Source: Psilocybe cubensis
Taxonomy: Eukaryota
Direction: 5' to 3'
NCBI GenBank assembly: GCA_017499595.2
Contig: CM039006.1
Coordinates: forward strand, 2,976,001-3,040,000
DNA length: 64,000 nt
A model generated the notes under the pieces. The model saw nothing but the letters and a program-made list of their open reading frames with translations. It had not been told where the DNA came from and did no database searches. This document shows, in pieces, positions 5,799 through 52,793 of this stretch. The translations under genes were made by a program, and so were the position numbers. Each line of letters begins with the position of its first letter. Position 1 is the stretch's first letter.

Positions 5799-5960
5799 GC
5801 CTGGGCACACACCCCGCCGAGACTTCACGTGTCGGTTGGGTTGTCCCCTCGCAAGAGAGATTCGGCGACAAAAATATACACCACATTTTTGCACCCAAAT
5901 CCTCAGCATATGATCGGGGACCCCCTCTTTCCTTCACCTTCAAGCTGGACGCACCATAGA
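5792..5960 (+). repeat. Ngaro split direct repeat B1 (169 bp)
   Basis: Identical by eye to 6337-6505. Confidence 0.95.
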
Positions 5961-21800: not shown

Positions 21801-23244
21801 CATTGGCTAAGTGAAAAATTTCCACTTCGCCAATTTCGCGGTATATTTTTTAAAGAGTTTGAATATGCCTGGTAATCATGGTGAAGGACTCGCAGCAAAG
21901 GTAGGCCTGATCACTGATCCGTGACGCAAAAAGATAAGATAAGATAAGATAACCAACACCGTCAGATCGCCATCCCTAACACCTTGACGATACATGGATG
22001 TCTTCTGATTCTGTATATTACGAATATTCCGCATTGTTGACAGTTGCCTGTAGGTAGTCAGAAGGTTCCTTACAGGATCATGACACACAGTAAAATCAGG
22101 TTAGGCAGTGTTCGTAACCCACGCTGGTCGGACGGGGGTGATGATTGATTGGATACCATTGACAGGTCCACACGCGCGATATATCTCAGGATCTGCATTT
22201 TGCGGGAGTTTATGACGATGTTCTAAACGTAAGATCTTTGATGTACTCTGATTTACGACCACAATCGCTGCTGCCGGTCGTTTGGTCTGTAAGTGTACCC
22301 TTCGTATTTGTAAACGATGTAGGCGGGAACGCGTTGATCTTCTTGGAGTTCAAGAACAATACCTAGCGGTACAACATGGACTTGCACACTGCGGATCATA
22401 TCGTCAGTCATTTCGCTTTCTGGGAAATTAACTGCGTAGATATGTTATCTACAGATGCAAGTCAAACATTGGTATCGATGAGGCCGTTTCACAGAAGCAA
22501 CGGTGTGAAGTATGTCACATCGCCGCGATACTCCACGCATGAAAGAGAATGGGAAAAATTGGGAGGATATATGGAGAGCGGTCATGCTCTTTTGAATCAT
22601 AGCACTACTCTCGGGGAGGCGTCTTCGGTGAGAGATCGAATTAAGAGACGGAATTCATCATGGAAATTTGAAGTGGTTCATCTTGACGGTCGCGGTAGCT
22701 TCATCTCAGGTGCGTTGACCAAGTTGGCGCTTATATTGACAGGGGTTCAAGCTTCAAGCTTCCAGTATACCATCTTGGATGACAGGTGTGCAGTGACGTG
22801 TTGTGTCTCGGTCAATCACATAGCCGATTTCTATCACGGAGGACGTCAGAGTTAATTTACAACCGGTCTGATCTCTTCAGATACATATTGAAGCCTGAAC
22901 AACGATGGGGATATAACTCTGAAAGAATGGCAGTGATACCGAATGAAGGACCATGTATATCATACTTAAGGTGATTCAAGTGGACACAGAATAGGTGTTT
23001 CTGTGTAGACATTTATTCATGGATTTCAAAGATTTAAATAGGTACATGCACGAATGTCAGATTCAGATGCAACCAGAGGTAGTATCTCTATTTGGTCACG
23101 ATACTGCTCCGCTTAGGTTTGTGAAACGTAAAGCTTGAGAAACCCATTAAAGCTTCACGATCGCATTATATTTTTAATAGACAATGCAAAGGACTATAAA
23201 GCAATGTTGTTACGATATGGAGGACGTGCCATATCATCACTGGA

Positions 23245-24905
23245 ATGTTCAATGACATGATCACGTCAAGTCCTTCTTCCCCACTTTCGCCCCTGGTTTT
23301 GGCCAAGCTATTCGATGCATTGCGTATCAAACAGACAGATAAATACTGCACCGGTATCTACACCTGTTGTGTATCCAATTAGGCTTCAGAATGTAATCCA
23401 TCCACTGTATAGTTGCCTCTATCTGTCTGTTTGCTTACGACTATGGTGAAGAACCCTAATTGAATGTTTTAAAACCCTAAAGCTCACGAATTTACCTAGT
23501 GTTAACATTTGACCAAGAGGTGCGCTTGTTTGCTGATATACGGCATTTACGAGCATCATTATTCACTTACGCGGCACAGATGGCATTCTTCTCGGTAAAA
23601 ATCAGTATCTCCTCAATGTTCCGTAACTGAACATGGTCATGCAGAACAAGAAGATTAGCTTGGTGAAGGCGCTATTCGTCTGCGTGAGTAGGAACGATTT
23701 CAATATAAGATCCTATCTTGCCTTACACTCTCACCTAGAGTCGGTATCTGGTTCCGGGAACATTCCTGTACGTGAGGCATCTGCAATCCCCGACGCAGAA
23801 TAAAATTTGAAAGCTTGACCTCATTTTCCACATTTTGATAGTTCTTGCCTTTTAGGTGAGTTCCGACGTTTTCAAGAGTCAATGAAAGCGTTGACACATG
23901 GGAAATAGGCTACTTCTTCAATGCCCCGAGTGATATAGTGCGTATATTGTTACCTCACATCTGGTCTGTCGTCTAATTTCCCTTCATACCACAGTAGTAG
24001 GTCATTTCAAGTCAAATCAAAGCGTAACCAATTTTGTTAATATGCACTTTAGCTGTAAAAATTTCCAAAGCGCCTGAATAATCCAACGTGTTACTTACAC
24101 CGTATGCTTTAAGGCATACGATTTTTAAACGGGATACACTGGTCTGCTGTCGTGGGGGTATTTATCCCTCAAGGCATGTCCCTTCCCAGCCATGCAGTTC
24201 CATGAATCTCATTGGAACTATAGCCATTTTACAGATCCGACTATACGCACTGTATGGTGCTAATAAGAGACTACTGGCACTGTTATTGCCAATGTACGTG
24301 CTGTGCGGTGCTGCCGGGACAGCTATTCTGGCTGTTGGCTTTGGTCAGGCTACGGCAGGTAAGCCCGACTTTCCACATAGCTACATTAATCCACTTGATA
24401 CAGAATACTGTTAGAAAAAGGAAACATACGCGCGCAGGTTCTTCCGAATGGAAAGGCATGTGCAATCACAGATATTCCGACGTATCTGTACGCTTTCTGG
24501 ATCCCTATAATTTCGTTTGAGCTTCTTTTGTGCACTCTTGCTGTCATGAGAGGGGTCAGAAATTTTAGGGATTATGGATCTACTTTTTCCACTGGGAAGC
24601 GTTTACTAGATATTCTTGTCCGTGATTCCCTCGCGTACTTTCTAGGGTGAGTTCAGGACTACCTGGTCAACTGGAATGAACTACTGATAGGTTAATTTCA
24701 GAATTGCCCTGACTTATTTGGTTTGCCTGGCGATTTGGAAAGTCAACACGGTAGCTAATTATATAAGTCTACAGAGGGTCCAAACTTACACTTGCAACAG
24801 GAACTTTTTGGTGCCCCTATGGCTTTTCAAATAACCATTGCATCTATCCTTTGTAATCGACTGGTTCTCAGAATACATGGAATAATGATGCGAGGAGAAA
24901 TCTGA
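23245..24905 (+). CDS. DUF6533-like multi-pass membrane protein (GPCR-like), multi-exon
   Basis: Spliced motifs SICLFAYDY / LTFDQE / SLVKALF / SRY / ILQIRLYALY / FWIPIISFELLL / LVRDSLAYF / ILCNRLVLRI. Confidence 0.8.
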
Positions 24906-25920
24906 AGGACTGGAACTGATATAATTATTTCATTGAGAACTTTGATAGTTTTAGGAAATTGAACTAGGCATAGATTTATGCCACGTTGTATTTGTAATTG
25001 GAGTTTTTGTCTGAACCATTCCACTTCTTTGAAAGAAACTGGGGATAGTTCTGGCACTAAAAGGATCGGCGGATATTCACATGTAAAAATCGAGCAGTAG
25101 GTGCTTTGGGCAGTGCAGAAAACATCACGGACATTGAGTTTGTTGCGCCATGGTGGAGGACCTTTTGGGATTCCGGGATATTCAAAATAGTATAAGATGG
25201 AGAAGCGTGAAATATAAGGGTTTACGAATAATATAATTTATAAAGCTATAGGAATGCAGTAATCAATTAATATTCAAATAGGGGAAGTTAAAGTGGACGA
25301 TTTAGAGACGAATCAGAGGAGAATCTGGTCACCAGAAGCGTGGGAAGATGCCCAATCGCCCCGGGATCGTTGAAGGAAGCGCCTGTTAGCGCCATCAATC
25401 CCCACCGCCATCAATTCCCACCGAAGGAAGCAAACTACGTACCGTGTCGCGCACGCCTTGATGCTTGAAGGTCCAATACTTAGGGTCTGCCCTGCACACT
25501 ATGTCAATAATTTACATTTAACTCTGCTCCAAAACTGGAATCAACATTACAGAGTCCTTTTTGGTGTAAATTTTTAGGGGATTATTTTTAGTTCAATCAG
25601 CGCCGAGGAAGAAATTATCAGCCAATGCTGAAATGTGGAGACAAGTCAAACTGATTTTCACCAGAGGCTCAATACCATTGTTTTCATCAAGTGGAGGTTA
25701 ATTATTCCATCCAAATCTTTATACGACCATTGGTCCACCTGTACATACCCTGACTATGAATAGAACCCTTACAATACAATCAATTACCTTATACATGGTG
25801 CACAGCTATTACTGCATTGATAATCGTTTATCCATTGATTTTAACCACATTATACATAGGGCCGTCCATTATTCATCTCCCTCCCATCCCCTACGCTGTT
25901 CATTACCCATCCCCTACGCT

Positions 25921-26420
25921 GTTTATTCCTGCCCTCATTATCCATCGGCCTGCTATTCATTCCCGCCCTCGTCATTCAAAGCACCCTTGTGCTGTGGTTT
26001 TTATTCCCGCCCTCATTATCCATCGGCCTGCTATTCATTCCCGCCCTCGTCATTCAAAGCACCCTTGTGCTGTGGTTTTTATTCCCGCCCTCATTATCCA
26101 TCGGCCTGCTATTCATTCCCGCCCTCGTCATTCAAAGCACCCTTGTGCTGTGGTTTTTACTCCCGCCCTCATTATCTATCGGCCTGCTATTCATTCCCGC
26201 CCTTGTCATTCAAAACACCCTTGTGCTGTGTTTTTTATTACCATCCTCATTATCCATCAGCCTGTCTGTTCATTCCCGCCCTTGTCATTCAAAGCACCCT
26301 TGTGCTGTGCTGCCATTTATTCCCGCCCTCATTATCCATTGGCCTGCTATTCATTCCCGCCATTGTTATTCAAAGCACCCTCAAGCCGTGCTGTTTATTC
26401 CTGCCCTCATTATCCATCAA
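25921..26420 (+). repeat. 78-bp tandem array (~6 copies), left subterminal region of the KDZ element
   Basis: Unit ttattcccgccctcattatccatcggcctgctattcattcccgccctcgtcattcaaagcacccttgtgctgtggttt; gives 26-aa repeats in all three frames. Confidence 0.9.
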
Positions 26421-26657
26421 TATTATCCATTACCAAGCACGTTATCCATGAACTCCATTATTCATTTCTGCATCATTTTTCAAAGTACCTGTATTCTTGT
26501 CTTCTAAATCTTTCCTTGTACCGTAACAGATAAACCTATTCCAAGAAAACACAATGCATTCAAGAAAACATAGCCTATAAATAAAATACAATCGTGCGTA
26601 GATCATACAAGAATTAAAGTCCAAGATCACGTGTCACAGTTCAATGTTCACGTTTGT

Positions 26658-29466
26658 CTACACACGGGCTTTTTTACCCGCCTTCTTTCCTCCCTCGCCT
26701 GCAGCCTTTCGCTTGCCCCTTCCCTTTCCGTTTCCTGCCTTCCCCGGCTCTAATTCAGCTGTTGTTGTCATCCCAAAGGCGCTCAATGTTTGAAGCATAT
26801 CATCAACAGCCGCTTCCCATCTGGCTCCTTGAGCACCCGACCACCATTTCAATCCCACCATAACTGTCAACAAACCGTTTGGACCACCTCGTCTTAATCC
26901 TTCAACGGAGTCCCTTGGCTTGGCCACACTGAAAGACAATGGCAACTCGCCTGGAACACTGTTCCTTCGCCATGCTGGTTGTAAGCTGTTCCACCATGTT
27001 AACCATAATGTACCAAATTCCTCAGGTTCAACAGAGGGTAGCGAGCCATAGTTTCTAGATGACAGCCATTTTGATAGTGCTGGGGGTCTCTTTTGCGCAG
27101 GAAATCTCATCTACAAGGGTACGTGTCAGCAGTTTTGCTATAGATCAATGGCATTGTACGAACTTACCGAACTTGTGTCCATATTTCTAAGCTCAGCCTT
27201 TTCAAATGCCTCCCATGCGGCCACGCACTTCTGCCACTTCTCCACGCTCAAGTCCTTGAACAAGAACTCAGTTGCTGTTGTCAACCATGCTTGGGGCAAT
27301 GCAACATCCTTTGAGGCGGCCGCCCTTTGATTACGACCTCGGGTTGTGACAGTAGTGTCTACATTTTCATCTGCCGGCTCCGCAACCATTTCATTCGAGG
27401 CCTGTTTGACTGCGGCATTTGGTAATGGAGTTGTGGATGGAGGAGCTCCATCAGTATGATGGTTCTCCGTCAATGCAAGTGCTGGTGCAGGCAAAACGGG
27501 GGGTGTCTGAACTATTGGTATTTGCAATTTACCTTCGTTCATTTGAATTATCATCTTCTGTAGCTCTACCCAGTCCTCTTCCGGCAGTCCATACGTCTCA
27601 TCTGGTTTGTCATTTGTCCATAAATCCTCTTGCATAGGGAAGCTGAACTGATTGTTGACAGCAAGTTGGTTGACGGCGAGTTGGTTCATGCCGAGTTGGT
27701 TATTGAAAGTGAGTTGGTTATTGAAGGCAAGTTGGTTAAGGAAGCCGAGCGAGTTATTGATGGCAAGCAAAGAATCAATTGCAGGATGGTTGTTGAAGAC
27801 CAGCGGGTTTCCAAGGCTGGGCTGAGGATTCATGATGAATGGGGTATTGAGGGTGAGCGGATTGTTGAAGCCGGTTTGAGGATTGACCAGTGGACCATTC
27901 GTACTGGACTCGACAGGCAGGCCATTGATAGTAGCGTTGGTAGACGGGCCATTGATAGCGGGTTCGGCAGGCAGGCCATTGATAGCAGGTTCGGCGGGCG
28001 GGCCATTGACAGCAGGTTCGACAGGTGCACCCTCACCCTTGCTAGCAGGCTCCTTATTGATGGCCCCTTCGTTATTGATGGCGCCCTCATTATTGATGGC
28101 ACCCTCATTATTGATGGCCCCATCATTATTGGCGCCTAGTGCAGGAGTGGTTGTGGGCGGAGACGTGATGGCTGGCGGCGGGATTGTGGTGGCGGTGACG
28201 GCGGGAGGGGAAGAGACAGCCGTAGAAGGTTGAGTAGTCGGCGGGGTTGGGTTTGGCGGAATGGGAACGGAATGTGCTGCTGCACTTGCGGTAACAGGTT
28301 CCAACAACGCATCTTTGGTCACTTCCTCGGGCTTGGATATAGCTGTGGAGGTGTCTGTTGCTGCGTTGTTTGATTTCTCTGCGACTGCCGTATTTTGATT
28401 GATGGATGAGGCACTTGAGGGTGGTACAATGGCTTGTCGATCCCTATCTTCCTGAGCTAAGTTTGTAGATCAATCAGTGAATCAAAACATTAATGAAATG
28501 ATTTAAGCTTACAATACACGCTGTACAAGAATGTTTGATATGGGGTCACAATATTCTCATAGAACTTATCATTAGCAGTTGAAAAAAGTTGATCGTATTG
28601 ATCTCGACCATTATGAGCTGCCAATGTACGGATTCTACCCTGGTCCGAGGGCTCTGGACCACCCATCAACACAGTAAATGCCCACCCCGTTCGACGACAC
28701 ATTTCATCAATGAAGGCCTTCACGGTTTCAGGCAAAGTGATAAGATTTCTAATGGACAGAGGAAAAATTAGATCCAATCTAATGGGAATCAACCAGTACG
28801 TACACTGCACATTCCTGCGGGCTGACAATCTCCAGCCCCTCTGGCACTTTCAATTTTGACTCCTTGAGTTTCTCCAGCTCAGCCCAAATCTCTTCTTTGA
28901 CTTTGTCGGTTTCCGCATTCCAAGCCTCGGCAATGCAGCGGTTAATGATTGCAATCCGGCTCCCTCCAGGATTCTCTTGCAAACTTTTCATGACGTTTTC
29001 CCTGATTCGGTCATCATAAAACCGCTTGGAGTATAAATTCATCTCAGATAGCAAGCGTGTCGGAGGACTGGTGCTGCCAATTACAATGGTGGGACCGCGT
29101 CGGTGAGTGGAGCCGGATCCCCGGTTGTTGAACCAGTTCACGATTTGCTGCCAAAAAATAAGCGCTCATTCAGCTCGATACAGAAAGCTAGCTTATATTC
29201 TTGCGCAATGTCACCCATTCGGCATGAGAAAGTGAAGAGGTATCAACTCTTGGTTTGGAATCTGGTTTGGATTTCTTTTTTTTTTTGCGAGGGACTGTCA
29301 AAGGTCGCACTTCATCCTCGGCTTTAGCCCAGATGGTAAAAAACTCATGATAGACTTTATTCCAAAAGTCCGGGGTTGTCTTGGTGCGCTGGGCCATCTG
29401 AAAATCCGGAACCTTGGCGGTAAGAAAATCGATTTGATCAGGGGTAGCCCACGGCAGCGGAGGCAT
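26658..29466 (-). CDS. KDZ cargo protein 1: putative DNA-binding N-terminus (homeodomain-like and HMG-like helices), repeat-rich linker, C-terminal WWxxLQPxWR...GPNG...WW domain
   Basis: Exons encode MPPLPWATPDQIDFL...FFTIW / QIVNWFNNR...NLYSKRFYDDRIR...AEAWNAETDKVKEEI / RRTGWAFTVLMGGPEP / P-A-N-rich repeats / KRPPALSKWL...WLTWWNSLQPAWRR...LRRGGPNGLLTVMVGLKWW. Confidence 0.75.
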
Positions 29467-29807
29467 TTTGATAATATGTCTAAGAATAAATGTCCTAAGA
29501 ATAAGTCAAATATTACAACATATCCAAACACAAAAGCGCTGAACAAACTTACTTGTTTAAAAGTTAAAAACTTATTTCCTGATAGACAGGATCGGGCACT
29601 TCTCTCTGCAACCTTGTTTGCCTCCAGAAGCTCTACGCATGGACCAATAGATGCTTACATTATGGGATCCGCAAGATTCGCCGCTATTTCCCGTGCAACT
29701 ATATAGTTTCTTTTTCTTCTGGGGGTACAAATAGCTGACGGGACTCGAAATCGTCTGACTTTTTCATCCCCAACTTCCACCATCAAACATTACTGTATTT
29801 TCAAACC

Positions 29808-30917
29808 ATGACTCGCAATCCCAACCCCCCTCCTCCTCCTCCACCCACGGCGGCAGATGCCAACGTGGTCATCGATCATATCTTGGATTCCCTCATTGCT
29901 CTTGAAATTGCCGGTGAGTAGTATACTAGCACTTATCACCGTTCAAAAAGTAAACAACCATCAGCATCAGATACGGCATCCGATGGAAACCCGGCCTCTC
30001 CCCCTTGTTATATGTCCCTTCCGGAGGTGCTTGATGCCTTCCGTGCCTTCATTCTTCAGTTGGTCAATGGACCAAACCAAACCAGTGGTGAGTTAACTGA
30101 GCCTGTCTATTCACCTTACCTTTTTATTTTCTTACTTTTTTTTTGCCTTACACTTACCAAACTCCTTTTTTTGTATGAGCAGATGCCCCGGGCCAGCCCA
30201 CAAATGGTAAAAGCGCCTATCTGGATTTACAACTGACACTAACATTTATTAACAGGTCCTTCTCGCCTTGACCACCGCATTCAGGCTGCATGGGATGCTT
30301 CTTCCGAATGTCTCGAAGGCAGCTCCTTGGATTCTCCTGCTGGCATTGCTGTGGGTGGTAATACAGGGCTGCGGGCCGTCTCTACTGGTGATTCGATCAT
30401 AGTGGTTAGTTCCGACACTGACGGCGAGTCCGATGCCGACGACGAAGATTACTATGCACACCCTGTATCTTCCTTGGAGCCTGCGCCAGCAGTAGCCACA
30501 AGCACATCCCTTACTGGCGCTACTGCCACTGCGGTCGCCTCTGCTCCGGAAGCGACTCCAGCAAACTATGTATGTTCTACGTGCTCTGGAGGTCGCTGGT
30601 ATGTTGTGTTTGCTGGCACAAATGTTGGTGTATTCGACGACTGGTAAGTAACTCTGTTTTAAATTTTTAAAATGTTGTTCTAATTGTCGCTCACCTGATT
30701 CAGGTCCACAGTCCAACGATACACCTCTGGTGTCTCGCACTCTTGCTACAAGAAGTATTCGAAGAAAGAGGATGCTGAGAAGGCGTACAAGGACTCTGTC
30801 ACGCGCAGTGAGGTTAGAATCCTCCCCACTCCTTCTGTTGCTCCTTCGATGGCCCCAGGAAGCAGTCATCCTCCTCCCCCACCTCCCGCACCCTCTGCTG
30901 GTGCCCTTTCTGCCTAA
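29808..30917 (+). CDS. KDZ cargo protein 2 with an RNase H1 N-terminal hybrid-binding (Cauli_VI) domain and no catalytic RNase H domain
   Basis: About 5 exons. Spliced WYVVFAGTNVGVFDDW/STVQRYTSGVSHSCYKKYSKKEDAEKAY fits the HBD consensus YxVxxGxxxGVYxxWxxxxxxVxGxxxxxYKKFxxxxEA. Confidence 0.8.
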
Positions 30918-31217
30918 TCTTCTTGCTATGTGGTGGGGTTTTTCCTCTTGGATATTTTCCGCTGTAGATAGATCATTTCATTGTCTGCACATTCCAGGAG
31001 TTTCCCCATCCTTCTTGTCGGGCCAGCCAGTATCTAGTCGTTTCATTTAGTTTGTATCTTGCGCATTGAGAGAAAAAGAATATATGTTTTATTTGGTGGC
31101 TCTATCTGTTGGATCCTAAGTGTACAGCGCGAGATTTATATGTAAATACATGGATAGTTAAAAAATTACATGTGGCTAGATATCGTCTGTCTAACCAAAT
31201 GTAAGAAGAATGGTACA

Positions 31218-31905
31218 TTACTTGAGATCTGTCTGGAACTCAAATGACATCCTGGCATACATAGATTTGACTTCATCATAGCCAATAAGGGCAGCCATAT
31301 GAATTTCCTCTACCCATCGATGCACATTATCAACTTCGAGGGCAATGGTCTTCAATTGATTATACTCTGGTCCAAGACCCGTCAACCCGTACACACTATT
31401 TTGGTAACGGTGGATTCGTTCTTGGTAGTGGTCTAGCACAGAATTGCAATCGGCAATGCTCTTGATATTTTTCTGCGCAAGATACTGTGCGCATTGCTTG
31501 GCTGTGAAGGCTATTGGGTCTGACAAGATGTATTCATTGAAGCGTCGTTTGAGGCGCTGGGCCTGATCCACCCAAACTTGAACGGGTGTCTTGACTGGCT
31601 TTGGTTCAGGCAGTTGTTGAGTTTTTCTGTTCAGGTTCTCTTGGCTAGACCTGCGCAGATTGAGGCTTTAGTATATGTAGTAGAGTAGTGCATGGCTGAG
31701 AGAGCACCCACTTTTGTCTCTGAACTTGTTTGTACTGCCTTCGTTTCTTCTTGTTAATCTGCTCTTTTGCCCTATGAGTGGCATGTAAATAAGTACTTTA
31801 TGGTAGAGAACAATATTAAACATACTTCTCATAATGTTTCTTGCTCTTTGCTCTGTTTGCAGCAACTCGTTCTTCAGCAGTAAAGTATTTTCGCTTACGA
31901 CCCAT
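31218..31905 (-). CDS. KDZ cargo protein 3, basic helical N-terminus, hypothetical
   Basis: MGRKRKYFTAEERVAANRAKSKKHYE / INKKKRRQYK / ...WVDQAQRL...VYGLTGLGPEY...WVEEIHMAALIGYDEVKSMY...FEFQ, with GT-AG introns. Confidence 0.7.
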
Positions 31906-32418
31906 GGTGGTAGCGGTGAAGGGAAGCAATGATTCTTAATGAATTAGTGTAGCCGTCTGGGTATTTTGAGCGTTTCACCTGACCTTTTTAACCTGCTGAG
32001 AAACCACTTTTGAAAGCGGTACCATTCGATAGCTAGAATTAATTGGATCAATATTATCTCATTTTTAAACAGATTGAGCTCATCGTTATATTGCTATTGA
32101 TTTTACTAGATATTTGTTTTCAGGATTTGGCATCAGCAAGAGGCCCAGACGGCCCGGCAATCCACATCATTGGTAATCGACCATGCCGCCTAGCGATCAA
32201 AATCCATAACCTTACTCGTTATACATGAAAAGCCCACCACACATTTTTCAAAGCTGTATATGTTATTGATGGCTTGTCAATTGCTGTCGTTGTTATCCAT
32301 TGAAATGTTTGAAGGCCAGGTCAATTGTGTGCACACATATAAAAGCCTTCTTCCATTCGATGCTCGCCTTACTTTTTCCCCACTCGACTTACTTTTTCCA
32401 TCGTCAAACCCTGTTCCA

Positions 32419-33039
32419 ATGCCAAAGGCCACCAAATACAGGAGAAACAAGCCTAAAAACTCCTTTGTGCGTATCTCCTTCTTCAGAACATTGTGTGCCT
32501 GTTGATTGGAATTTGCAGGACTTTTGTGTTGAACCTGGAATTACGCCTGTCTCGCCAGAGGTCAACTCCGACCAATTCCGCTTTATAGTTGAATTTGGAC
32601 CGTATTTTCGCCAAGCAACCAGGCTCAACGAGCAAATGCACTTTATGGATGCATTTCTTGACCTTTGGTTTGCCAAATGGCCTGAGTTACCCGTTGACTC
32701 AGCTGATGTAGACTTTGCGTACCACCGGCAATCCGTTACAAGGAAGGTTTGTCAATTTTAGCTTTGTAGTATTCCTACCAGGTGTTCTAACAACACTTGT
32801 AGAAGGTCCTTCGAGAATTAAGATTTACTGGAGCATTTAGTCACGAAAGTGATCAACCTTGGCGTGGATATCTTGCCACAAAGACGGCCGAATTCCACGC
32901 AAAGAAAGCCAATGTGGCCTCGACATCCAACACATCCGCTAATCATTCCCGCCCTCGGCCCAGGCCCCGCCCCAAAGTCATCAAGCAGGAGGAGGAGGAA
33001 CCGTCCCTAGAGCCAGAGTGCATTGTTATTGACGATTAG
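32419..33039 (+). CDS. KDZ cargo protein 4, hypothetical
   Basis: MPKATKYRRNKPKNSF / DFCVEPG...QFRFIVEFGPYFRQA...FLDLWFAKWPE...TRK / KVLRELRF...IVIDD*, with two GT-AG introns. Confidence 0.65.
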
Positions 33040-33167
33040 AACCTTCTGTTAATGACCCATTTGATATGTTTTCGTGATTATATGTTTGTGTAGCTAATTT
33101 GCATACCCAAATTTATAACAACCACATCGTATTCCACTTGAGTTGCATGATACAATGTTATGTCTAT

Positions 33168-36100
33168 TTAGTGGCATTCTACCATAACATATGCATTGTG
33201 GCCTTCTAATGTTGTCAACGACTCTGAAATACCCTTCCATTCCTTCTCACAAAGAGCTACTATGTCCCGACGAATTCCTGCCTGCTTTTGGGCATATGCA
33301 ATCTTCCCATCTAATGTTGTAGAGTCCGAGATCGAGTTAGATGATGCAACAATATCTGTAGCTCGTGTTTCCCATATATTTGCCTGCCAGTTAAAAAATG
33401 CTATTACCCGACGCATTTCTTCGGCCAGTAGCAAGCATTCTTCCTGCCAGCGATGTGCTCTGGCACGCGACTTGCACCACTCAACACGAAGTACTGGGAT
33501 GGATAGGGCCATAAGTCTGGAAGTGAGCACGAAATGATAAAGATGCACCTGCTTGAGTAGACTTCTCCGCGTCTTCCCCCATGCCATGAACTTTCCATAT
33601 CCAAGACAGCTTTTTGCGCCCTTTGCTCCCGGAGTAATCCATCGAGGTTAGGCCAGTGACATCGGTGTCCAAAAGGGGTCGAAGGATTTGTCGCCATGCG
33701 CACTGGACGAGGGGGGTCGAAAGAGCTTCTAATGCGTTGTATGCAACATTGTAGGTCTTTGTCGCAAACTTGACCTTTTCTTCAACAGCTGCAAGCAAGC
33801 CCAAACTTCTAGTTTGCATTCGCTGGCCACGGGAGTGCCTTTTCTTGGACTTAAACATGTGAGAGCGAAGGAGGAGAAACCCACGTAAGGAATTGAGGGA
33901 TTCTTCAGCTTGAGCGTAACGATATTCCCATTCGCATTTAAGCAAGGGAAGCGAGGAACAACGAAGAGTATAGCCGTTGTACGATAGAAGGAAGAGCTTG
34001 ATGTCTTGGATTGCAACTGGTATTGCGGTATTGGCGTCAATCTTGGAGCGATACAACACAACTCCGGGCATATAAAGATGTTGGACAGCAGTCCAAGCAT
34101 CAATGCGACGCTTCAACGAATTGGACCTTTCTAGAATTTTTGTTTGTTGTAAACTGGTGGAGTGCGGCCCAAGTTTGGCAGTATCAATGGAAAGACGCGC
34201 TCTGATCATAATGTTAGTCGCAAGTGAGCAACAGAAAGAGAGGACGTACTGCAGCTCTTCTAGTTGAAGACCTTGGGAGATTAAGACACTAGGACTGACA
34301 TCAACGTGTAGCGCAAGTGAGTCTCCTCGCTTCACTGCTTCGGATTCCTTGCAAGCTAGGCGCAAGCGGACATCAGACTCGGTGATATTGGCTACAAAGA
34401 ATACAAAGGAGCATTGTGAGATACTGGAGTGAATAAGTGGCAACAAAAACGAACCATTCTTGGCAAGCGCAAAAGGGTTTGGCTGTTTTGGGTCTTTTTC
34501 CCAGGCTTGACACATTTGTGTCCATTCTGACGTTGTATCCTTGGGGAGCACTGCATCAAACTCGATGAAAGACTCCACATGCTCTTTTCGTTCGTGAATA
34601 GCCTCTTTTGCTTTGCGAACAAATGTATCAGCTGAGAAAGCTTGAAGTTGAGAAAATCTACTTATGTCAAAGAAAAGGAAGTAACTGACCAATTGTAATG
34701 ATTTTTCGCCAGTTGTAATCCCCAAAATGGTTGTCCAGGGTGTCATTGCGTGATCCCGGACCCATTTCCTTGGTGCTGCTTGCAATACCATTTGTGGCTG
34801 ACCATCCCCGCTCAGGAGCTTCGCCGTCTGTCCGGCCAACACCCGGTGTGTAGTTGAAAGAGAAAGCGGCTTGGCATTTTTGAACGTGGGCGGGAAGGTG
34901 AAACTTAGGTACAAGGTATACAAGGGAAGGTGCAGAAGGGTTTGAGAGCACATTTTCTGGGTAGATTTGACATCGTTTGAGAAGGTTTACCCACCATTGA
35001 CAAGCAATGTCATATGAGACAACAATGCGAAGCAATATTGTATATGCTATGCTTGACAGAAAAAAATAATCCATATTTACATAGCTAGAAGTCATAGTGA
35101 GTGACGCCCAGATTAATCTTACAAAGGCACTGACCGTTCACCCTTTTGCAGGTCACCGACCGAAACAGGGCGTTTCATGTCGTGCCTACTACATTCAGCT
35201 GTTCCAAGCCCACTAGCAGCAGTACCGTGTCCTCCCCTCGCGTTTGCCGATTTGATAGCATCATGATTATTGCATGTGCTTTTCTCGTCAGCGATTCGAC
35301 CGTCATAAGTAGCCAGGTAGTTCTTGAACTTATTACTTTCCACCATGTAAGCATATCCATGATTCAATCCAGGATCCCTTTCATCACTAGACACATTCAT
35401 TCGCTTCAGGCGGAAATTGGCGTCAATGGCGATGAAAAGAGAATAAAGCCATCTATTATATAGATCAGAAATTTGGACATATATCAAGGTAAAGATCTTG
35501 CCGTTCCGATTCCGGCCTTTCTTTCCAGTCCTCGGGCAAATTAATGCCGGGATGGGGGCAGGCAGGACATAACACAGCGCACTCTCCTTCTTTGGTACCT
35601 TTGACTCCAGACTCTGCGTGCCCGCGACCCATTCGTTTGAGAAGCCGGATGTGCCGCCATTCACGCACAATCCTCATAAAGACAGGATAGCGATCCTAAA
35701 ACAGATGGTTGAGATTACGCTTTGAAGCAAATGGCATGGGAAAAATAATGAAAATATCATACCGGTGGCGGCCTGGTTCCCATGTTGTCAGTAATTCGAG
35801 CTAGTGTGTGATAAAACTCATAGCCAGAGACCTTTGAGTTAAATGAAAGAAGCTGGAAATGTTCGAGAACGTCAAACGTGGCGGCTGTTTTGGGATCAGC
35901 CACAGTTGAGGGAAATAAACGAGCACGGAGTAATTGTGTTGGCTTCAAAGGAGCGTGGGGACACCCACAATATCTCAAGGATACTTCATGAATTCCGGTC
36001 TGACAGATGACAATGAAGTCGTCGTTGAATGCGTTTATTGGGACCTGACAGTCGTTATGTCCAAGCTGAATGTACAACCCTAAGCTCTTCAAAGTGACCT

Positions 36101-36840
36101 TGCGAAAATATCCACTTTCAGTCCAAACCTAAACCGCCATTAGTACCAATGTCATGTTATTGAGTCAAGTCAAATCATACGCTCACCTCAATACAATGGA
36201 AAGGGTTATGGATATGGGAGGAAAGGGTGCACTCGATACAGAAAATCTGCATGCCATAGCAATCCTTGCAACGAAAGGCACCATTACTCATATTAGACTT
36301 GCAGTCGGCAGTTGAACATTGATCCAGGGTGTTGCCACATCGTCCTTCCAACCTCAGAAACTCTTCTACATATGAATCGATATGGGGTGTCCAAAAAAGT
36401 AGCGGATGAGTCTGCATGTATCATGTGGCTTAATAAATATAGATAGACATAAATTTCAGACATACCGACTGTGTTTTCTTTTTTTGTAGCGTTTTTGTGC
36501 TCTCGAGACCATTTTCCCTGTCAGGACGAAGATATTTCTTCAGTCCCAGCGCCTCCAATTCACAATCTTCCATCTCTTCCATGTCAAGGTCGCCATCAAA
36601 AACACGATATGGAGATTGAAAAACCCAGTCAAGCTGGGGTGTAGGCAATTCTGGGGCACCGGGAGGAGGATATATAAGTGGATGAGGAGCGCCAACTGGT
36701 ACTGCCATGCGAATTGAATGTTGATTGAGTCGTCCATGATATTCAGTATGTATATCTCCTAGTAGAACTTGCTTTCGTTGTTGCTCTTCAAGAGATTCGT
36801 ACTCATTGTAGATCTGACGCTTGCAAGGTCGTCGTCCCAT
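33168..36840 (-). CDS. CxC2-domain KDZ transposase, multi-exon
   Basis: CxC2 segment LGLYIQLGH...GIHEVSLRYCGC...QLLRARLFPST...TAATF. KDZ core CPACPHPGINL, IDANFRLKR, CSRH...GDLQKGERYVNMDY, SYDIACQW, VPKFHLPAH...C, GRTDGEAPERGW. C-terminal LSWIW and RVEWCKSRARAHRWQEE. Confidence 0.93.
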
Positions 36841-37009
36841 ATTAGCGGGGGTAGTGAAGACAGTTGTTGATGCTTGGTGCTATGACCTGAAAGCAATGGA
36901 TAATCGTGGGTAATGCACATTGAACGTATATGGAAATGGGGTGCTACTAGAGCATGAATAATGGACACAGTCATGGATGGACAGCGCCATGGATAATCCG
37001 ACATGGGTC

Positions 37010-37660
37010 CATAACAATGGATAAATGAGAAGGGAATGGAAAATGAACCAATGGATAATAGACGCACCAATGGATGGACGGGATAATAGGCGGATGGAAC
37101 ACATAGACAATGGATAATTGGGACGGGAATTGATTATGGAGCGATGTATAAGAGACCTAGTCCATTGGATAAATGAGAAGGGAATGGATAATGAACCAAT
37201 GGATAATAGACACACCAATGGATGGACAGGATAGTAGGAGGATAGAACACATGGATGATGGATAATAGGGACGGGGATGGATTATGGAGTGCTGTCTAAG
37301 AGACCTAGTACATTGGATAAATGAGAAGGGAATGAATGACGGACCGATGGATAATAGACGCACCAATGGATGGACAGGATAGTAGGATGATGTAACCCAT
37401 GGATGATGGATAATGGGGACGGGGATTGATTATAGAGCGATGTATAAGAGACCTAGTACATTGAATAAATGAGAAGGGAATGAATGACGGACCGATGGAT
37501 AATAGACGCACCAATGGACAGGATAGTAGGATGATGTAACCCATGGACAATGGATAATGGGGATGGGCATTGATTATGGAGCAATGTATAAGAGACACAG
37601 TCATTGGATAAATGAGAAGGGAATGAATGACAGACCGATGGATAATGCACACACAAATGG
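37010..37660 (-). repeat. ~148-bp tandem array (~4.5 copies), right subterminal region of the KDZ element
   Basis: Anchor agagac recurs at 37151, 37299, 37447 and 37591. Each unit has several TGGATAA motifs. Confidence 0.9.
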
Positions 37661-38372
37661 ATGAACAATGCCATGAATAATTGTCAATGACTGACGCTGG
37701 GACTGTTGGTGTTTATTCATCGGGACAGCAGGAACATGGATAATTATCATAGACAGTAATTAGTGCAGTACATGTATAATCTTATTCACATCTTTGCAGA
37801 AGGTCTATATATAAAAATGACTGCTAGGCCTCATTGGTCAACATTACTGGTCATTGTGCTGGTAATGTGCTTTTCCCGAAGCACTTTCTTGCTCAGCAAG
37901 CAGCAGTGTAGAATTAGATCTGTCGGCCTGTCAATGGTATAATGATGCAGATGTCGCATTTAATCTCTAAGGATCTGAAATAGAACGAATTGCATTGATG
38001 TTTATGGGTTCAGTTCAAGACATTCAATGTGGTCTATAAATGTGATTCCACCTGCGCGTATCTAATTGATATTGAACTTACTCATCGAATATCCGAAGAA
38101 AAAATATGACACGATTCTACAGTCATTTGTGAAGGATATATAACAGTGACGCAATGATCAATGATTATTTATACCATAATATAATGTCCTGCGTTCAACT
38201 TGACGTATTGCTATGGCGCATAACTTGATAGTTGCTGCAAGTCACCGAACGCATTGAATGGTGCCAAGTAGCGGCTACATGTTATAATGCAAGCATTTGA
38301 GCAACCAGATCCTTGAATCCCTCTAAATACTATCTATCTGGAGTGTACCAGCAAAAGGGGTACTTCAGCAAT

Positions 38373-39639
38373 ATGTCTACATCTGATGTTCCTTTCTCTA
38401 TCCCCACCAGGGTTCAGATATCAGTCATTAGTGGCACTCTTAACTCCGTCGTAGTTTTTGCAATCTTAACTGGTAGGTTATATTTCATAATTGATTCATG
38501 AGCGCCAGGACGGTCCATATTGACAATTTTTAGGTGTGTACTCGATTGTCTATGTTGGGACAATGTACTTTTATAGTAAGCTATTTGTTTACTGTAATCT
38601 ATTCTCTTCTTTTAAACCTTTTAGTAACAAGACGACGCGCGACCAAGAGTAGAATGGTAGTTTTATCTACCATTTCCTTGCTTTACATCCTGTTTATGGT
38701 GCAGTTTGCGGTCCAATGGTATTATCTCAACTTGGCAATCATTGAGAACGGTGACACACGGGTTTCTATCTTCATCTCTGCCCTCACACGTGGATCGGTT
38801 ACGGTTTACGCTGTAACTCAGACCGCGTTTTGTATGATGTTTATTGTGTCCGATGCCCTACTAGTAAGTACTCTTGTATTTTAATCAATTAAAGAATTCC
38901 TAAATCACAGTATAGATATGCTATCAGGTATGGGGTCAGTCAGTCAGAGTCACTGTACTTCCAGTGGCATTAATCATGGCCGAAACCGGTGAGTAATTTG
39001 TGGTCGAGACTCAACAAAGCAGAAAACTTGAAGTGAATGCCATATCCAGGTACTTCTATAGCGCTGACAGTGTTGCCTATTGTCAAACCACGAACAACTA
39101 TCTCATCTATCTCACACTTTAAAACCCTTACATGCATTCAAGCATTTGCGTCCTTCGCTACAACAGCGTTATGTACAGTGCTGATAGGGTACAGGATCAA
39201 CAAAGTTTCGAATATGGACGGAGCCAATCGATCAAGCAGCGCACGGTTTTCTCATATCATCAAGGTTCTGATTGAGTCAGCAGCTGTCTATTTGTTCATT
39301 ATCCTCGTGTATGCTATTCAGGCAGCTATCCCCATTTCGTCTGAGAGTCTCATAAAATCCCCCTTGCTGCTTGAAGGGTATTATCTCCAGACAGTGATTA
39401 CGGCTGTTTCTGTACGTCAGTTTAGTCTCTGGTTCTGGATTCACTTAGATTTTATTCTCCTTATGTGACAGGGTCTGGCTCCAACTTTGATTGCGACAAG
39501 AATTGCATTAACGTCTGGAAAAAGCAAAATTACAGCTGAACCATTGGATAAGATTTCCCAACTAAATTTCCAGCATAGAACTTGTAATGATAGTGTAATA
39601 AGGCCCATGAATAGCTGTACCTCCTCATCCGCTGATTAA
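38373..39639 (+). CDS. Multi-pass membrane protein, 'D.LL/IWRCY..W...ES' fungal family (GPCR-like)
   Basis: Spliced FAILTG / VYSIVYVGTMYFY / VSDALL / ICYQVWG...LPVALIMAE / TVLIGYRI...IKVLIESAAVY / GLAPTLIATRIA. Confidence 0.75.
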
Positions 39640-40522
39640 TAGACACCATGTTTCTTGGATAGACAGTAACACCTTGTATCTAGAGGACACACTCAATACA
39701 CTCAACTGCGAGCGAGATCCTGATAAATGTGTTGATGGAGACTCCGGTATGTCTCGCCTCGTTGTCTGGCCCTCGTCTATATTTGTAATGGTCACCCTGA
39801 AGGAGTTTAACAAAAAAAGGAATTCCCATGTCTTTAAAGAGAGTTGATCATTATCAGTGCTATACCGCTGGATGTCTTTTTCTGCGGGTAGAACTTTTCT
39901 TCAATGCATAAGCGGATAGTTGGTCGTTAGTTAACAGAGTATTATTCAACCATGGGAAAATTGGTTTACAAAATTACCCAGTAAAATAAAGAGCTAGACG
40001 GTCTACGAAAGATGAAGAGACGTGTATCAGCGGCACAGCGCAAAGAACCATTGTGAATGATCCCAGAAGCGAATAGAAAATTGAGGCCGATAAATGGACC
40101 TGCGGGGCGATCATGTTATTTCATCAGTTTCAAACCCCTTCAGACATTCTGATTATCTTGAGGAATTCGTTGACGTTGATCATCAGGGCAAGAATACAGC
40201 TCGCCACGACCATCAAGAAGCCAAATCGTGAGTAAAAGTCTCGATTTGAAGACCGTGCGTGGGAACTTAAGAGTGATTAGCGCATTTGAGATAGCGAATT
40301 CAAGCGAACTCGTGGGGCATTCTGGCCATGCCTGATATACCAGCTGATACTAAGCAATTACAACTGTAGACTAGGCTGCTCAGAGCAAAGTACGCGTGAG
40401 AAGAGTCTTCTTTATTGCAGCAATGAATCCCCAAAAGGTTTCTTGGTGTATTGCGTATAAAGGGTGAGTTTGAAACCCTGTCTCCCTGCTTAATTAATTG
40501 CTTACAGTCGAGACTTCTCGGA

Positions 40523-42289
40523 ATGAGCGCAGAGAGTATTCCCCCCGCACTTTTCGGTCAGCTGAGGGATGTACAAATCACTCGTTTTGCACAGTGTATG
40601 TTCTTCATCTTTCATTTCCACCAAGCGCAGGCTGTCAGTGTAATTGTCTGAAATGCACAGTATCCTCTCAGACCATTATAATCCTCGAGCACTGTAGGTA
40701 TTCCAAGCTGTTTGGTAATCCAAAGGAATACTGGAGGATAACACTTAAATGATTTCAAGTTCTAACGTTTGACCAAGAGGTATGCCCCAACAATCCAAGT
40801 TCTCAGTTGTCTCAGCAGACTGACTCAAGCTCCAGGTTAACTTGATATGGGTGGGTGAAGTACTTAATACAATAGAAGTACTCTTATCATCTTGCCATTT
40901 CAGAAAAGCCCATGGTCATTGGTGAAGATTCTCTTCTTATGTGTGCGTCGCCATTACAAAAATAGAGATTCCAACATTGCTTGTGATTAACTGTGTCAGT
41001 TAGATTCGATATTATGGTTTGGCGAGCGCAGCGTAGGTATCATTCATTACCATATTAACATTCATAGACTCATTTCCCCTCCCGGGACCGCAATTCAGAC
41101 TGAATGACTATAGTAAATTCTGCTCTTCGACTATTTTAATTGCTAACTTAACGAAAATTTTCAAGTTTTGTTCCCTCTAACAATAACTGATTCGGTAGGT
41201 GGAAAAATTGAAGTATTTTAGGTACTAAATTCTCCTTTTTCAGAGGTAGGACTAGTATTCATATGTCTAATTATATCCGAAGCTTGATTCAAAATAGCTG
41301 TAAGTTGATATTCTCATCGTTGATAAACAATTCAATAGCGATCTGACACTTTTCATGTGACATAGGTCTGAGGTACTTCCAATGGCAAGGATGGACAACA
41401 TTAGCAATTAGTATGATGGCCGAAGGTCTGTAAAGATCTATTTTACCAACTCCCTAGCTAATCTATTGTCAACCCATTGATTTAGGAGTGCTTCAAATTC
41501 GAATATACGCCATGTATTTCCACAATAAAACGGTTCTTGTTGTGCTTCTGATATGCTTCGGCATGACTTCGACAGCATCAGCTACGATGATGGCACTGTC
41601 AGCGCGGACGTTGCAACGTAAGTAGTGGCGTCATTTCACTCTAGTAGGCTAGTATTGAAATTAAATTGTCAGCGGTGGCAATCGCAACGCCAATAGGCCT
41701 AACATGTGCTCTCCGTCGCGCGCCAGGAAGCTTCTACGCTTATTGGATACCCCTGCTTTGTTTTGAGGGATTGCTATGTGTATTGGCCCTCATCAGGGGG
41801 ATTCAGATGTCCAGAGCCATTGACCCAACTGAAAGTAGGGAACCAGTACAACCCTCATTTTCGCCCCTCACACGGGGTAAGCGGGTAATAGACATGCTAT
41901 ACCGCGGTTCGATCGTCTACTTCCTAGCGTAAGTAAAGGTTTATACGTCTACTGACATCGTTCATGACTAATATCACTCTTACTCACCAATAGTATCGGT
42001 GCAACGTTCATGATCACCATAATATTTTGGCTGACTTTACCTGTATGTCTATCAACCTATATAGTCTCGCTAAATGCTCACGCATCAGTAACCCACGTTG
42101 TAGCTCGGTTTGAGCATGGCCCCACTAGGATATTGTATCACACTTCCATGCGTCATTGCCAACCGACTAGTGCTAAGTGTGCGTGGAGCAGCGCAATGGG
42201 ATACCACAATGGGAAATATGACAACGTTCGAGGTTAGGGTCGACACGGCTGATCCAGATTCAGAATTGGGGAAGGATTCGGGTGAATGA
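40523..42289 (+). CDS. DUF6533-like multi-pass membrane protein, multi-exon
   Basis: MSAESIP...DVQITRFAQ / LTFDQE / VNLIW / PWSLVKILF / RYYGL / QWQGW / LQIRIYAMY / YWIPLLCFE / YRGSIVYF / VIANRLVLSVR. Confidence 0.8.
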
Positions 42290-43452
42290 AGCGTGGCCCA
42301 AGTCAATATAGTGAAGCAGAACTAGTGAATCTGAAATCCTAAATTTTGCGTAGAACAGAGCAGATGCGAAGCAGCAGTGAAATTAAGAGACAGCAGAGGT
42401 AGGATATAGCGCGCAATAGGAACGCGCGCGTAGATGTTAAAACTGGATGAGGTTACATATATCCATAAGGACGGGCTTGTAAAGCTCACCATATTGATCT
42501 TCCATATAGCATTGACCTTGCTCCTGTTCATGCTCACGCAATGACATAGACCACTCCATGAGTTTGTCAGAACGAAAGGGCATCGCTTGAAACTATTCAG
42601 GAGACACAATTGGCTTTGATTTCGGCACCTTCATCTGAGTTTTGCTTAGATCAGGAGTTCTGGGTCTCCACCCATCATGCTGCATGGCCTCCACAAGCCT
42701 CGCCAAGCTCCAGCACTCCTCCATCCCAAAATGATATCGCTCGTCCTTGGACAATGCCAGTTGACCCATCATCTTGCGCAGAGGTTTCGTCTGTTTCAAC
42801 TTGTACTGCCTTGCGAACGCTTTCTTGATGTTGAGACGCGATATTGGACTGAGAAGAGACAGGTCGTCGAGATGGGAATCCACCAATGATTTGTATGCCA
42901 GTTGCGCTGGAAGAATTTCGTTCAGGTCCGCTTTATCGTATGTGAGAAATGCAGTAGTGGATGGGTCACGGAGTACATCGTGATATTGTAAAAATTCTTT
43001 GAACCTCTTCCAAACAGGCGGAAACAAATCGGCGTTCTCAACCATATCCTATCGCGCATATGTGTGGTAGACGTGAACAAGTTGTGATGATGATGACATT
43101 ATGCTACAACACAGCGTACCTGTCGTACCCCAGTGACTTGCGCGCACTTCTGGTCAATAGCACGAATCCGCGAAGGCTTGACGTACTCGTGGAACGACGC
43201 GTACACTTTCCTGTCGCGTAGGTTGTATAGCAGCGCTGGCATTTCTATGATCTCCCGGATGATGGGTGTCCTGGTAACTTCAAGTTTCATTATTATCAGT
43301 GAGTTGAGATGTATACGTGGACGCTTGATAGCACTGGCGAGGACCATCGTTCCACAGCTCGTTGGCGTTATCGAAGATGGATATCAACGACTACAATTTG
43401 ACGGTGACAATATTGGGTGCAGTTGATGCTTCCGTTGTGATCCGTAGGCGAC
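41067..43452 (+). repeat. Segmental duplication, copy A
   Basis: Direct repeat of 51560-53977. Near-identical up to about 43265, clearly more diverged over the last ~190 bp. Confidence 0.95.
42593..43347 (-). CDS. ERI1-like DEDDh 3'-5' exonuclease homologue with altered active site (copy A)
   Basis: Two exons (intron 43119-43049): LIIMKLEVT...EIIEMPALLYNL...FHEYVKP...CAQVTGVRQ/DMVENADLFPPVW...AFLTYDKADL...LNIKKAF...YHFGMEEC...GWRP, collinear with ERI1-family motifs. Confidence 0.75.
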
Positions 43453-51559: not shown

Positions 51560-52793
51560 GACTCATTTCCCCTCTCGGGACCGCAATTCAGACTGAATGA
51601 CTATAGTAAATTCTGCTCTTCGACTATTTTAATTGCTAACTTAACGAAAATTTTCAAGTCTTGTTCCCTCTAACAATAACTGATTCGGTAGGTGGAAAAA
51701 TTGAAGTATTTTAGGTACTAAATTCTCCTTTTTCAGAGGTAGGACTAGTATTCATATGTCTAATTATATCCGAAGCTTGATTCAAAATAGCTGTAAGTTG
51801 ATATTCTCATTGTTGATAAACAATTCAATAGCGATCTGACACTTTTTATGTGACATAGGTCTGAGGTACTTCCAATGGCAAAGGATGGACAACATTAGCA
51901 ATTAGTATGATGGCCGAAGGTTTGTAAAGATCTATTTTACCAACTCCATAACTAATCTATTGTCAACCCATTGATCTAGGAGTGCTTCAAATTCGAATAT
52001 ACGCCATGTATTTCCACAATAAAACGGTTCTTGTTGTGCTTCTAATATGCTTCGGCATGACTTCGACAGCATCAGCTACGATGATGGCACTGTCAGCGCG
52101 GACGTTGCAACGTAAGTAGTGGCGTCATTTCACTCTAGTAGGGCTAGTATTGAAATTAAATTGTCAGCGGTGGCAATCGCAACGCCAATAGGCCTAACAT
52201 GTGCTCTCCGTCGCGCGCCAGGAAGCTTCTACGCTTATTGGATACCCCTGCTTTGTTTTGAGGGATTGCTATGTGTATTGGCCCTCATCAGGGGGATTCA
52301 GATGTCCAGAGCCATTGACCCAACTGAAAGTAGGGAACCAGTACAACCCTCATTTTCGCCCCTCACACGGGGTAAGCGGGTAATAGACATGCTATACCGC
52401 GGTTCGATCGTCTACTTCCTAGCGTAAGTAAAGGTTTATACGTCTACTGACATCGTTCATGACTAATATCACTCTTACTCATCAATAGTATCGGTGCAAC
52501 GTTCATGATCACCATAATATTTTGGCTGACTTTACCTGTATGTCTATCAACCTATATTGTCTCGCTAAATGCTCACGCATCAGTAACCCATTTCTATACC
52601 GTTGTAGCTCGGTTTGAGCATGGCCCCACTAGGATATTGTATCACACTTCCATGCGTCATTGCCAACCGACTAGTGCTAAGTGTGCGTGGAGCAGCGCAA
52701 TGTGATACCACAATGGGAAATATGACAACGTTCGAGGTTAGGGTCGACACGGCTGATCCAGATTCAGAATTGGGGAAGGATTCGGGTGAATGA
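51560..52793 (+). pseudogene. 5'-truncated, frameshifted duplicate of the DUF6533-like gene at 40523
   Basis: Starts inside an intron and lacks the first exons. An extra A at ~51880 (caatggcaAaggatgg) shifts the QWQGW exon. Confidence 0.8.

Follow-up and report, generated by a model that had tools for sequence, protein, structure and literature searches.

A gene for an RNase H1-type hybrid-binding domain is conserved beside CxC2-type KDZ transposases and lies in a 12.1-kb element of Psilocybe cubensis

KDZ (Kyakuja-Dileera-Zisupton) elements are large, active, multi-gene transposons that reshape basidiomycete genomes and cause drug-resistance mutations in Cryptococcus, and the genes that they carry besides the transposase have so far been known only as TET/JBP dioxygenases or as open reading frames (ORFs) without domains. 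The passages on Cryptococcus KDZ elements describe extra ORFs of the latter kind, with no predicted domains (PMC11343200), and those on target-site duplications give 8 bp for Zisupton and Dileera and 7 bp for Kyakuja, with Kyakuja families described as having no terminal inverted repeats (PMC12730594). The hybrid-binding domain (HBD, Pfam family PF01693) of RNase H1 is a second well-described system; the relevant sections on the human domain assign its binding surface to Trp43, Lys59 and Lys60 and report that hybrid binding is abolished by W43A or by deletion of Phe-Lys-Lys (PMC6846478). The two come near each other in Pleurotus ostreatus (Agaricales), in which capE, a gene with PF01693 alone, is described in a long copy of helpo1.3; as presented in the passages on this copy, capE stands between the Pro-rich capD and capF, an RNase-H-fold 'putative transposase', within a 10.7-kb insert flanked by inverted repeats, and was interpreted by the authors as a gene of viral origin that a Helitron had captured (Castanera et al., 2014, PMC4289320). 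Here we analyse a 64,000-nt stretch of the Psilocybe cubensis genome (hereafter the window; assembly GCA_017499595.2, contig CM039006.1, positions 2,976,001 to 3,040,000, forward strand), in which a KDZ element of 12.1 kb carries a gene whose only recognisable domain is an HBD. The gene is very probably a conserved component of the element, neither a chance neighbour nor a decaying captured fragment, and we think it likely that it represents a conserved accessory gene of one lineage of CxC2-type KDZ transposons of mushroom-forming fungi; its protein may serve as a hybrid-preferring reader or shield.

The HBD gene is represented in databases by a 274-residue protein (P0001), which an exhaustive phmmer search with exon 4 recovered at 100% identity over that exon, and which an exact look-up lists both as a hypothetical protein of Psilocybe cubensis and as 'Ribonuclease H1 N-terminal domain-containing protein'. 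Our own model joins five exons (29808-29913, 29965-30087, 30183-30206, 30256-30643 and 30704-30917) into 284 residues; its four introns, read from the window sequence, are 49-95 nt long and all GT-AG. P0001 departs from this model in two ways only, both in frame: it lacks the mini-exon of 24 nt, and one of its acceptors lies 6 nt further downstream. Matched to PF01693 after splicing, P0001 scores 40.7 bits (E 2.8e-10, profile positions 2-43 of 44) against a curated cut-off of 21 bits, and, taken separately, one window exon covers profile positions 2-17 at 13.5 bits and the other 19-43 at 16.2 bits. When the 64 kb were scanned in all six frames for the HBD motif, a single copy was found. With other families considered up to E 1, PF01693 was the sole Pfam family in P0001 and the catalytic family PF00075 was not found; likewise, the ORFs of at least 70 residues between 24.5 and 38.5 kb gave no match to an RNase H catalytic domain. 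Only ~300 bp separate the HBD stop codon from the next gene, and related HBD genes end ~20-25 residues past the domain.

An earlier, sequence-only reading of this DNA had anticipated much of this picture. The gene limits that it gave are exact (ATG at 29808, TAA ending at 30917), and the spliced HBD/Cauli_VI motif that it described is present, split by a 60-nt intron inside a Trp codon. The CxxC (CSTC) directly before the domain and the acidic tract upstream are both visible, the catalytic RNase H domain that it reported as missing (PF00075) is found neither in P0001 nor in the neighbourhood ORFs, and the PF01693 match that it proposed as a check lies well above the cut-off (40.7 against 21 bits). 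Its spacing of ~340 bp to the divergent cargo-1 gene agrees with the 335 bp that follow from a cargo-1 start at 29472 (-). Its comparison with caulimovirus P6 holds for the common 44-residue domain and goes no further; nothing else of the protein has relatives.

The domain is C-terminal, after ~185 residues of disordered and acidic sequence and the CxxC, from which we infer a protein made of a disordered, Ser/Thr/Pro/Ala-rich acidic N-terminal part and a C-terminal RNase H1-type HBD. Among solved structures, the one closest to it in sequence is that of the yeast RNase H1 N-terminal domain (1qhk), to which it aligns over 43 residues ungapped (E 0.0042, domain-only query) with the Tyr, both Gly, the Trp and the Tyr-Lys-Lys retained; W204 and Y219-K220-K221 fall on the Trp and the Tyr-Lys-Lys of 1qhk. 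By spacing, we take W204, K220 and K221 to be the equivalents of the human surface residues, a correspondence that is in part presumed. Since the Trp and the aromatic-Lys-Lys surface are retained, the protein should bind an RNA-containing duplex without cutting it, and binding to either an RNA:DNA hybrid or double-stranded RNA (dsRNA) is, on these residues, probable. A hybrid, as in an R-loop, is favoured over dsRNA as the ligand because the aromatic positions of the binding surface are the best kept, an argument that draws on the structure of the human domain. An ESM Atlas model of residues 184-245 matches PF01693 clusters with TM-by-query scores of 0.69-0.74, and the nearest whole-protein Atlas clusters, useful as leads only (scores 0.87-0.88), are from Basidiomycota, with proteins about 240-256 residues long, 56-76% of which carry PF01693 alone. 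Matches to a coronavirus protease and to a kinesin light chain in the PDB had E-values like that of the true match and were taken as chance.

Two short segments upstream of the domain deserve mention. The hydrophobic-acidic segment IIVV-SSDTDGESDADDED (window 30387-30455) and the DDDIVVVL of one related locus (L064:5009-5632) presumably resemble SUMO-interaction motifs. The CxxC recurs at the same place in six of 17 related first halves (L003, L004, L005, L008, L011 and L040) and may give some family members a small additional zinc-binding site; a larger Cys-Cys-His-Cys zinc site (C181, C184, H216, C218) was considered and dropped, as its His and the CxxC are not conserved across relatives. 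Weak matches to the Cys-rich family Ima1_N, below cut-off (E 0.0017-0.024), were also seen over F-x-C-Q-H/Y-C-Q-Q in L003, L004, L005, L008 and L011. On the opposite strand of the gene, an open frame of 242 residues (30249-30977, -) exceeds every sense exon in length; a Pfam search with it gave zero matches, and it is probably a by-product of low-complexity composition.

The association of the gene with KDZ transposases extends to many other fungal contigs. When metagenome contigs were scanned with the catalytic ORF of the KDZ transposase, 205 relatives were returned, of which the best 80 (52-71% identity) were taken, and their six-frame ORFs were searched for the HBD with the P0001 domain, then with the motif, and then with hidden Markov models (HMMs) built from the matches. 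A split HBD gene was found in 19 of these 80 loci, always on the strand of the transposase and 2.3-6.9 kb upstream of the catalytic ORF. The proportion depends on how much upstream flank a contig offers: the gene is present in 19 of 32 loci when at least 3 kb is available, in 16 of 21 at 4.5 kb or more and in 11 of 13 at 7 kb or more. Downstream of the transposase, 181.6 kb of sequence gave 0 matches. One locus (L075) shows a weak HBD pair on the opposite strand. As judged with Pfam, PF01693 is matched by 25 of the 36 candidate ORFs and is present in 17 of 20 loci; the two halves match over complementary profile ranges in 8 loci, and two first halves are above the cut-off alone. The split itself is shared: the TG of the Trp codon runs straight into a GT donor in 17/17 related loci, as in the window, and in 13/13 loci in which the second half was located an in-frame acceptor gives an intron of 46-67 nt.

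The gene furthermore stands in a conserved module, ordered in the relatives as cargo1(-), HBD(+), g3(-), g4(+), transposase(+). Homologues of cargo-1 exons adjoin the HBD gene in 5-9 loci, g3 homologues occur in 11 at the same position and on the same strand, and g4 homologues occur in 10; Pfam searches with g3, g4 and their homologues (window ORFs, L008, L010, L011 and L032) gave no family. The module is complete in L008 and L011 and is cut by contig ends in L001, L003, L004 and L005. In L011 (1312-13063, ~11.7 kb) it is enclosed by terminal inverted repeats of 115 nt, which start with TGATTAATAAACCC; inside both ends stand dense, mutually inverted arrays of a unit of ~50-65 nt, and matching inverted arms are present in L008. 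The DNA of L008 and L011 is similar up to the edges of the module, beyond which the flanks are unrelated. At the DNA level, the ends and the cargo region of the window element show no useful similarity to any of the 80 loci; the matches obtained were three short ones, all in the g3 region.

Selection on the coding sequence points the same way. Over 76 codons covering the CxxC and the HBD, dN/dS lies between 0.054 and 0.155 in 10/10 pairs of five related copies, and this part of the gene is under strong purifying selection. HBD identity also tracks KDZ identity over 13 loci (Spearman 0.66, a value reached in 0/2000 permutations), to which we give little weight because any two genes of related genomes would correlate. 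That the linkage of HBD and KDZ genes is conserved and under selection is what is new here; stand-alone PF01693 proteins, as annotations, and KDZ elements with extra genes were already known.

In P. cubensis the module lies within a unit that some haplotypes or strains have and others lack (Table 1). Contigs of a public DNA run (X1) were aligned to window positions 22000-40000; contigs of the filled form differ by ~0.3%, and one 759-nt contig joins 25692 to 37832, omitting 12,139 nt, with 36 other letters at the joint. On the plus strand of the window CATTGGTC occurs only at 25728 and 37832, the left copy standing 35 nt past the left break. The simplest reading is a single insertion of 12,096 bp with an 8-bp target duplication, the other allele having diverged over 35 nt. 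The unit ends read 5'-CACCTG..GGCCT-3', and its left and right subterminal arrays are inverted relative to one another, with arms of 28-48 nt that are 71-90% complementary. The transposase matches PF18803 (CxC2, E 3.6e-40) and PF18758 (KDZ, E 4.8e-19 and 3.8e-40, profile 1-217 over two exons); a frameshift suspected from tblastn proved to be a 50-nt GT-AG intron, which two relatives read through in frame. The placement inside a DNA transposon proposed from the letters is thus borne out by the KDZ/CxC2 transposase, the inverted arrays, the 8-bp duplication and the skipping contig, and the same reading's concern that the gene might not be linked to KDZ elsewhere is answered by its presence in 19/80 related loci, including 11/13 with at least 7 kb upstream.

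Table 1. Features of the KDZ element and of its HBD gene (positions are those of the window; strand left empty where none is given)
Feature	Position	Strand	Basis
KDZ transposon, 12,096 bp, insertion polymorphism	25736..37831		contigs, subterminal arrays, transposase
Left copy of candidate 8-bp target-site duplication, CATTGGTC	25728..25735		8-mer count
Right copy of candidate target-site duplication, CATTGGTC	37832..37839		right side of the skipping contig starts exactly at 37832
Left subterminal repeat array, 78-nt units	25905..26454		direct-repeat family D2
Right subterminal repeat array, 148-nt units	37014..37667		families D4, D5, D12
Cargo-1 gene, several exons, weak HMG-box match	26661..29472	-	ORFs 29505-29191, 29165-28782, 28849-28493, 28469-27141, 27110-26661
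Divergent intergenic region, cargo-1 / HBD gene, 335 bp	29473..29807		direct sequence reading
HBD-only gene	29808..30917	+	ATG at 29808, TAA ending 30917; P0001 274 aa; own model 284 aa
Hydrophobic run, then acidic/Ser tract (IIVV SSDTDGESDADDEDYY)	30387..30455	+	sequence reading
CxxC (CSTC), directly before the domain	30573..30584	+	sequence reading
HBD, first half (WYVVFAGTNVGVFDDW; final codon split)	30597..30643	+	PF01693 profile 2-17; motif scan
60-nt phase-2 intron within Trp codon, position conserved	30644..30703	+	GT-AG reading; relatives
HBD, second half (...SGVSHSCYKKY...AEKAY)	30704..30782	+	PF01693 profile 19-43
Gene g3, convergent with HBD gene	31221..31943	-	ORFs; no Pfam family
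Gene g4	32270..32758	+	ORF; no Pfam family
KDZ transposase gene	33171..36879	-	CxC2 36128-35760; KDZ domain 35673-34670, split by 50-nt intron

Among the remaining element genes, the HMG_box match of cargo-1 has E 0.02 and is below the cut-off, and the largest exon of this gene contains in-frame tandem repeats of 27 nt and 18 nt (27892-28131, -). A few further X1 contigs align to parts of cargo-1 and of the transposase, and none to the HBD gene, g3 or g4. Outside the element, the window holds direct repeats (41067-42395 and 51560-52899), each longer than 1.3 kb, which are 98-100% identical and stand 10.5 kb apart; they look like the two long terminal repeats (LTRs) of a young retroelement or a recent duplication, and part of their sequence recurs in inverted orientation in the arms at 63933-64000 and 62572-62632. 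A compact LTR-type retroelement occupies 1432-6229: its 269-nt direct repeats (1432-1700 and 5961-6229) are identical, and the ORFs between them include one with a reverse transcriptase (RVT_1, E 4.8e-11, in 2854-5076). Host-like genes lie at 11174-12304 (-) and 55703-57170 (+), comprising two ORFs with DUF3602 and one AMP-binding enzyme that is divided between two ORFs, with an (ATGGAT)n microsatellite (57636-57761) just after the latter.

Several observations weigh against reading the gene as a conserved, hybrid-preferring component of the element. Both the ligand preference and the role in transposition are predictions, and splicing and expression in P. cubensis are predicted from the gene model, with intron conservation as support. 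The HBD fold is a small three-stranded sheet with two helices; the single-sequence AlphaFold2 model of P0001 is poor (mean pLDDT 40) and over residues 179-236 shows strand-strand-strand-helix-helix, but at pLDDT ~40-54. Within the binding surface itself, relatives have R, K, S, C or L where the Lys-Lys pair has its first Lys. The HMMs used to collect HBD genes were seeded by their own matches, so their E-values are circular and Pfam is the independent check. Nor is the gene universal: L027 and L055 have no HBD despite at least 4.5 kb of flank, and in L010 and L032 the module is present with a gene in the HBD slot (L010:4863-5603, +; L032:5250-6260) that has no recognisable HBD. The L010 ORF ends with a CxxC like that before the HBD of relatives, and these slot genes may reflect loss or replacement of the domain. 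On the side of the element, the skipping contig is ~88% identical in its flanks, and as 35 nt are replaced by 36 other letters the empty site is not letter-perfect; the outermost ~50 nt of the unit are not inverted repeats above shuffled controls (best score 28, shuffle maximum 31), and a target duplication is not visible in L011. The window transposase lies on the strand opposite to that in every related locus, with the order and strands of the accessory block the same, which indicates that the P. cubensis copy is rearranged; an X1 contig spans the g4/transposase junction, so the inversion is not an assembly slip of the window alone. Run X1 gave no second contig of at least 80% identity over the HBD gene, and the alignment bins from 29212 to 34620 have the depth of a single contig; the P. 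cubensis copy therefore seems single at that identity threshold, contigs being unable to give copy number. Finally, no relatives of P0001 outside the HBD were found in searches with exon 4, the whole protein, and residues 176-240 and 14-100: the sequence searches returned P0001 itself, with four low-complexity matches added by the exon-4 phmmer search.

Some of these points could be taken to mean that there is no transposon here at all, the five genes forming a conserved locus of the host, centred on a KDZ-derived gene that was domesticated, and the haplotypes differing by an ordinary deletion of 12 kb. The single P. cubensis copy at the 80% threshold, the imperfect empty allele and the very ends of the window element, at which no terminal inverted repeat is seen, would all suit such a locus. 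We regard it as the most improbable of the explanations weighed, in view of the right edge of the skipped segment, which coincides to the base with an 8-mer duplicated only at the left edge, and of the inverted subterminal arrays that bracket the module in the window, in L008 and in L011, the last with its 115-nt terminal inverted repeats. Moreover, several diverged copies occur within the same record series, and the similarity of L008 and L011 stops at the module edges amid unrelated flanks. That the element is real and the gene a neutral passenger, a host HBD gene or fragment captured once and carried without function for element or host, is also disfavoured and strikes us as highly improbable. 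A host pool for such capture plausibly exists, since stand-alone PF01693 proteins form several large Basidiomycota Atlas clusters (leads only); beyond its HBD the P. cubensis protein is an orphan, and the passages on the Pleurotus gene treat it as captured (PMC4289320). A passenger would not be expected to show dN/dS of 0.05-0.16 in every one of the ten pairs, to keep its position, strand and intron in copies that can no longer be aligned to the window at the DNA level, or to be retained in 11 of the 13 well-flanked loci.

If the protein does something, as purifying selection indicates, it could act in silencing evasion, sequestering dsRNA that the convergent and divergent genes of the element give rise to, or blocking hybrid-dependent heterochromatin formation, and so blunting RNA interference (RNAi) in the manner of many viral suppressors. 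A dsRNA decoy against RNAi was the second of two functions conjectured in the sequence-only reading, the first being the targeting of R-loops. Both dsRNA and hybrids are bound by the domain family. The HBD gene and g3 point towards each other, with ends ~300 bp apart, so that overlapping transcripts would arise; in addition, the passages on a Cryptococcus KDZ element describe it as covered by 21-24-nt small RNAs and as moving differently with and without RNAi (PMC11343200). The convergent gene pair and this small-RNA targeting together make the idea reasonable. We nevertheless consider it unlikely, as the conserved aromatic positions fit the reading of a DNA strand, which favours hybrids, and as the protein lacks a further dsRNA-binding module and resembles P6 in 44 residues only.

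We thus return to the reading of the gene as one for a hybrid-preferring protein of the element. Such a protein would bind, non-catalytically, RNA:DNA hybrids formed on the element or at its targets, and might recognise R-loops at transcribed target sites or on the element's own repeat arrays. It is possible that this binding licenses or directs transposition by guiding the transposase; alternatively, the hybrids may be shielded from host RNase H and from RNAi-linked silencing factors. A hybrid-centred role in the control of transposition is, at present, a tentative proposal, and it is similarly doubtful, though conceivable from the domain, that the KDZ lineage encodes a dedicated non-catalytic reader of RNA:DNA hybrids within its transposition machinery. 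Should this be true, it would be the first time that an accessory factor of a eukaryotic cut-and-paste transposon is described as hybrid-binding, and it would suggest that many of the uncharacterised Basidiomycota 'RNase H1 N-terminal domain-containing proteins' are encoded by transposons. Beyond that proposal, the linkage may explain widespread, unstudied fungal proteins annotated only with this name. A selected gene with a hybrid-reader domain is a testable handle on target choice and silencing escape of KDZ elements, and its protein may offer a natural nuclease-free hybrid binder.

Set beside the known systems, the domain is closest to the HBD of eukaryotic RNase H1 (1qhk and human), with a near full-length profile match, the binding residues kept and the same spacing as in 1qhk; it differs from RNase H1 in that the HBD is C-terminal, no catalytic domain follows and the gene is borne by a transposon. 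With caulimovirus P6/TAV, the namesake of the Pfam family, it has in common the 44-residue PF01693 domain, no other P6 region being detectable, and its best solved relative by sequence is the cellular RNase H1. The element resembles other fungal KDZ transposons in its transposase with an N-terminal CxC cluster, its large size (12 kb) and its extra genes, and its candidate 8-bp duplication has the length given for Zisupton and Dileera in the passages on target sites (PMC12730594). Unlike the KDZ families that carry TET/JBP genes, it has no such gene: no Tet_JBP match was found in 59 + 10 window ORFs, nor in 140 ORFs of L008, L010, L011 and L032. In the paper on the TET/JBP families, the terms 'RNase H', 'hybrid' and 'Cauli' have 0 occurrences each. 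In contrast to the KDZ elements of Cryptococcus, the element here has a conserved accessory gene with a recognisable nucleic-acid-binding domain. Full-text literature searches, which did not cover the founding KDZ paper (PNAS 2014), found no published description of the linkage between HBD and KDZ genes, and Pleurotus capE appears as its unrecognised precedent. As far as the passages on it go, the capE insert is much like the P. cubensis unit in layout and size, with capF identified there as a predicted RNase-H-fold nuclease and its KDZ identity not stated (PMC4289320). Our result suggests another reading of this 'virus-derived gene captured by a Helitron'.

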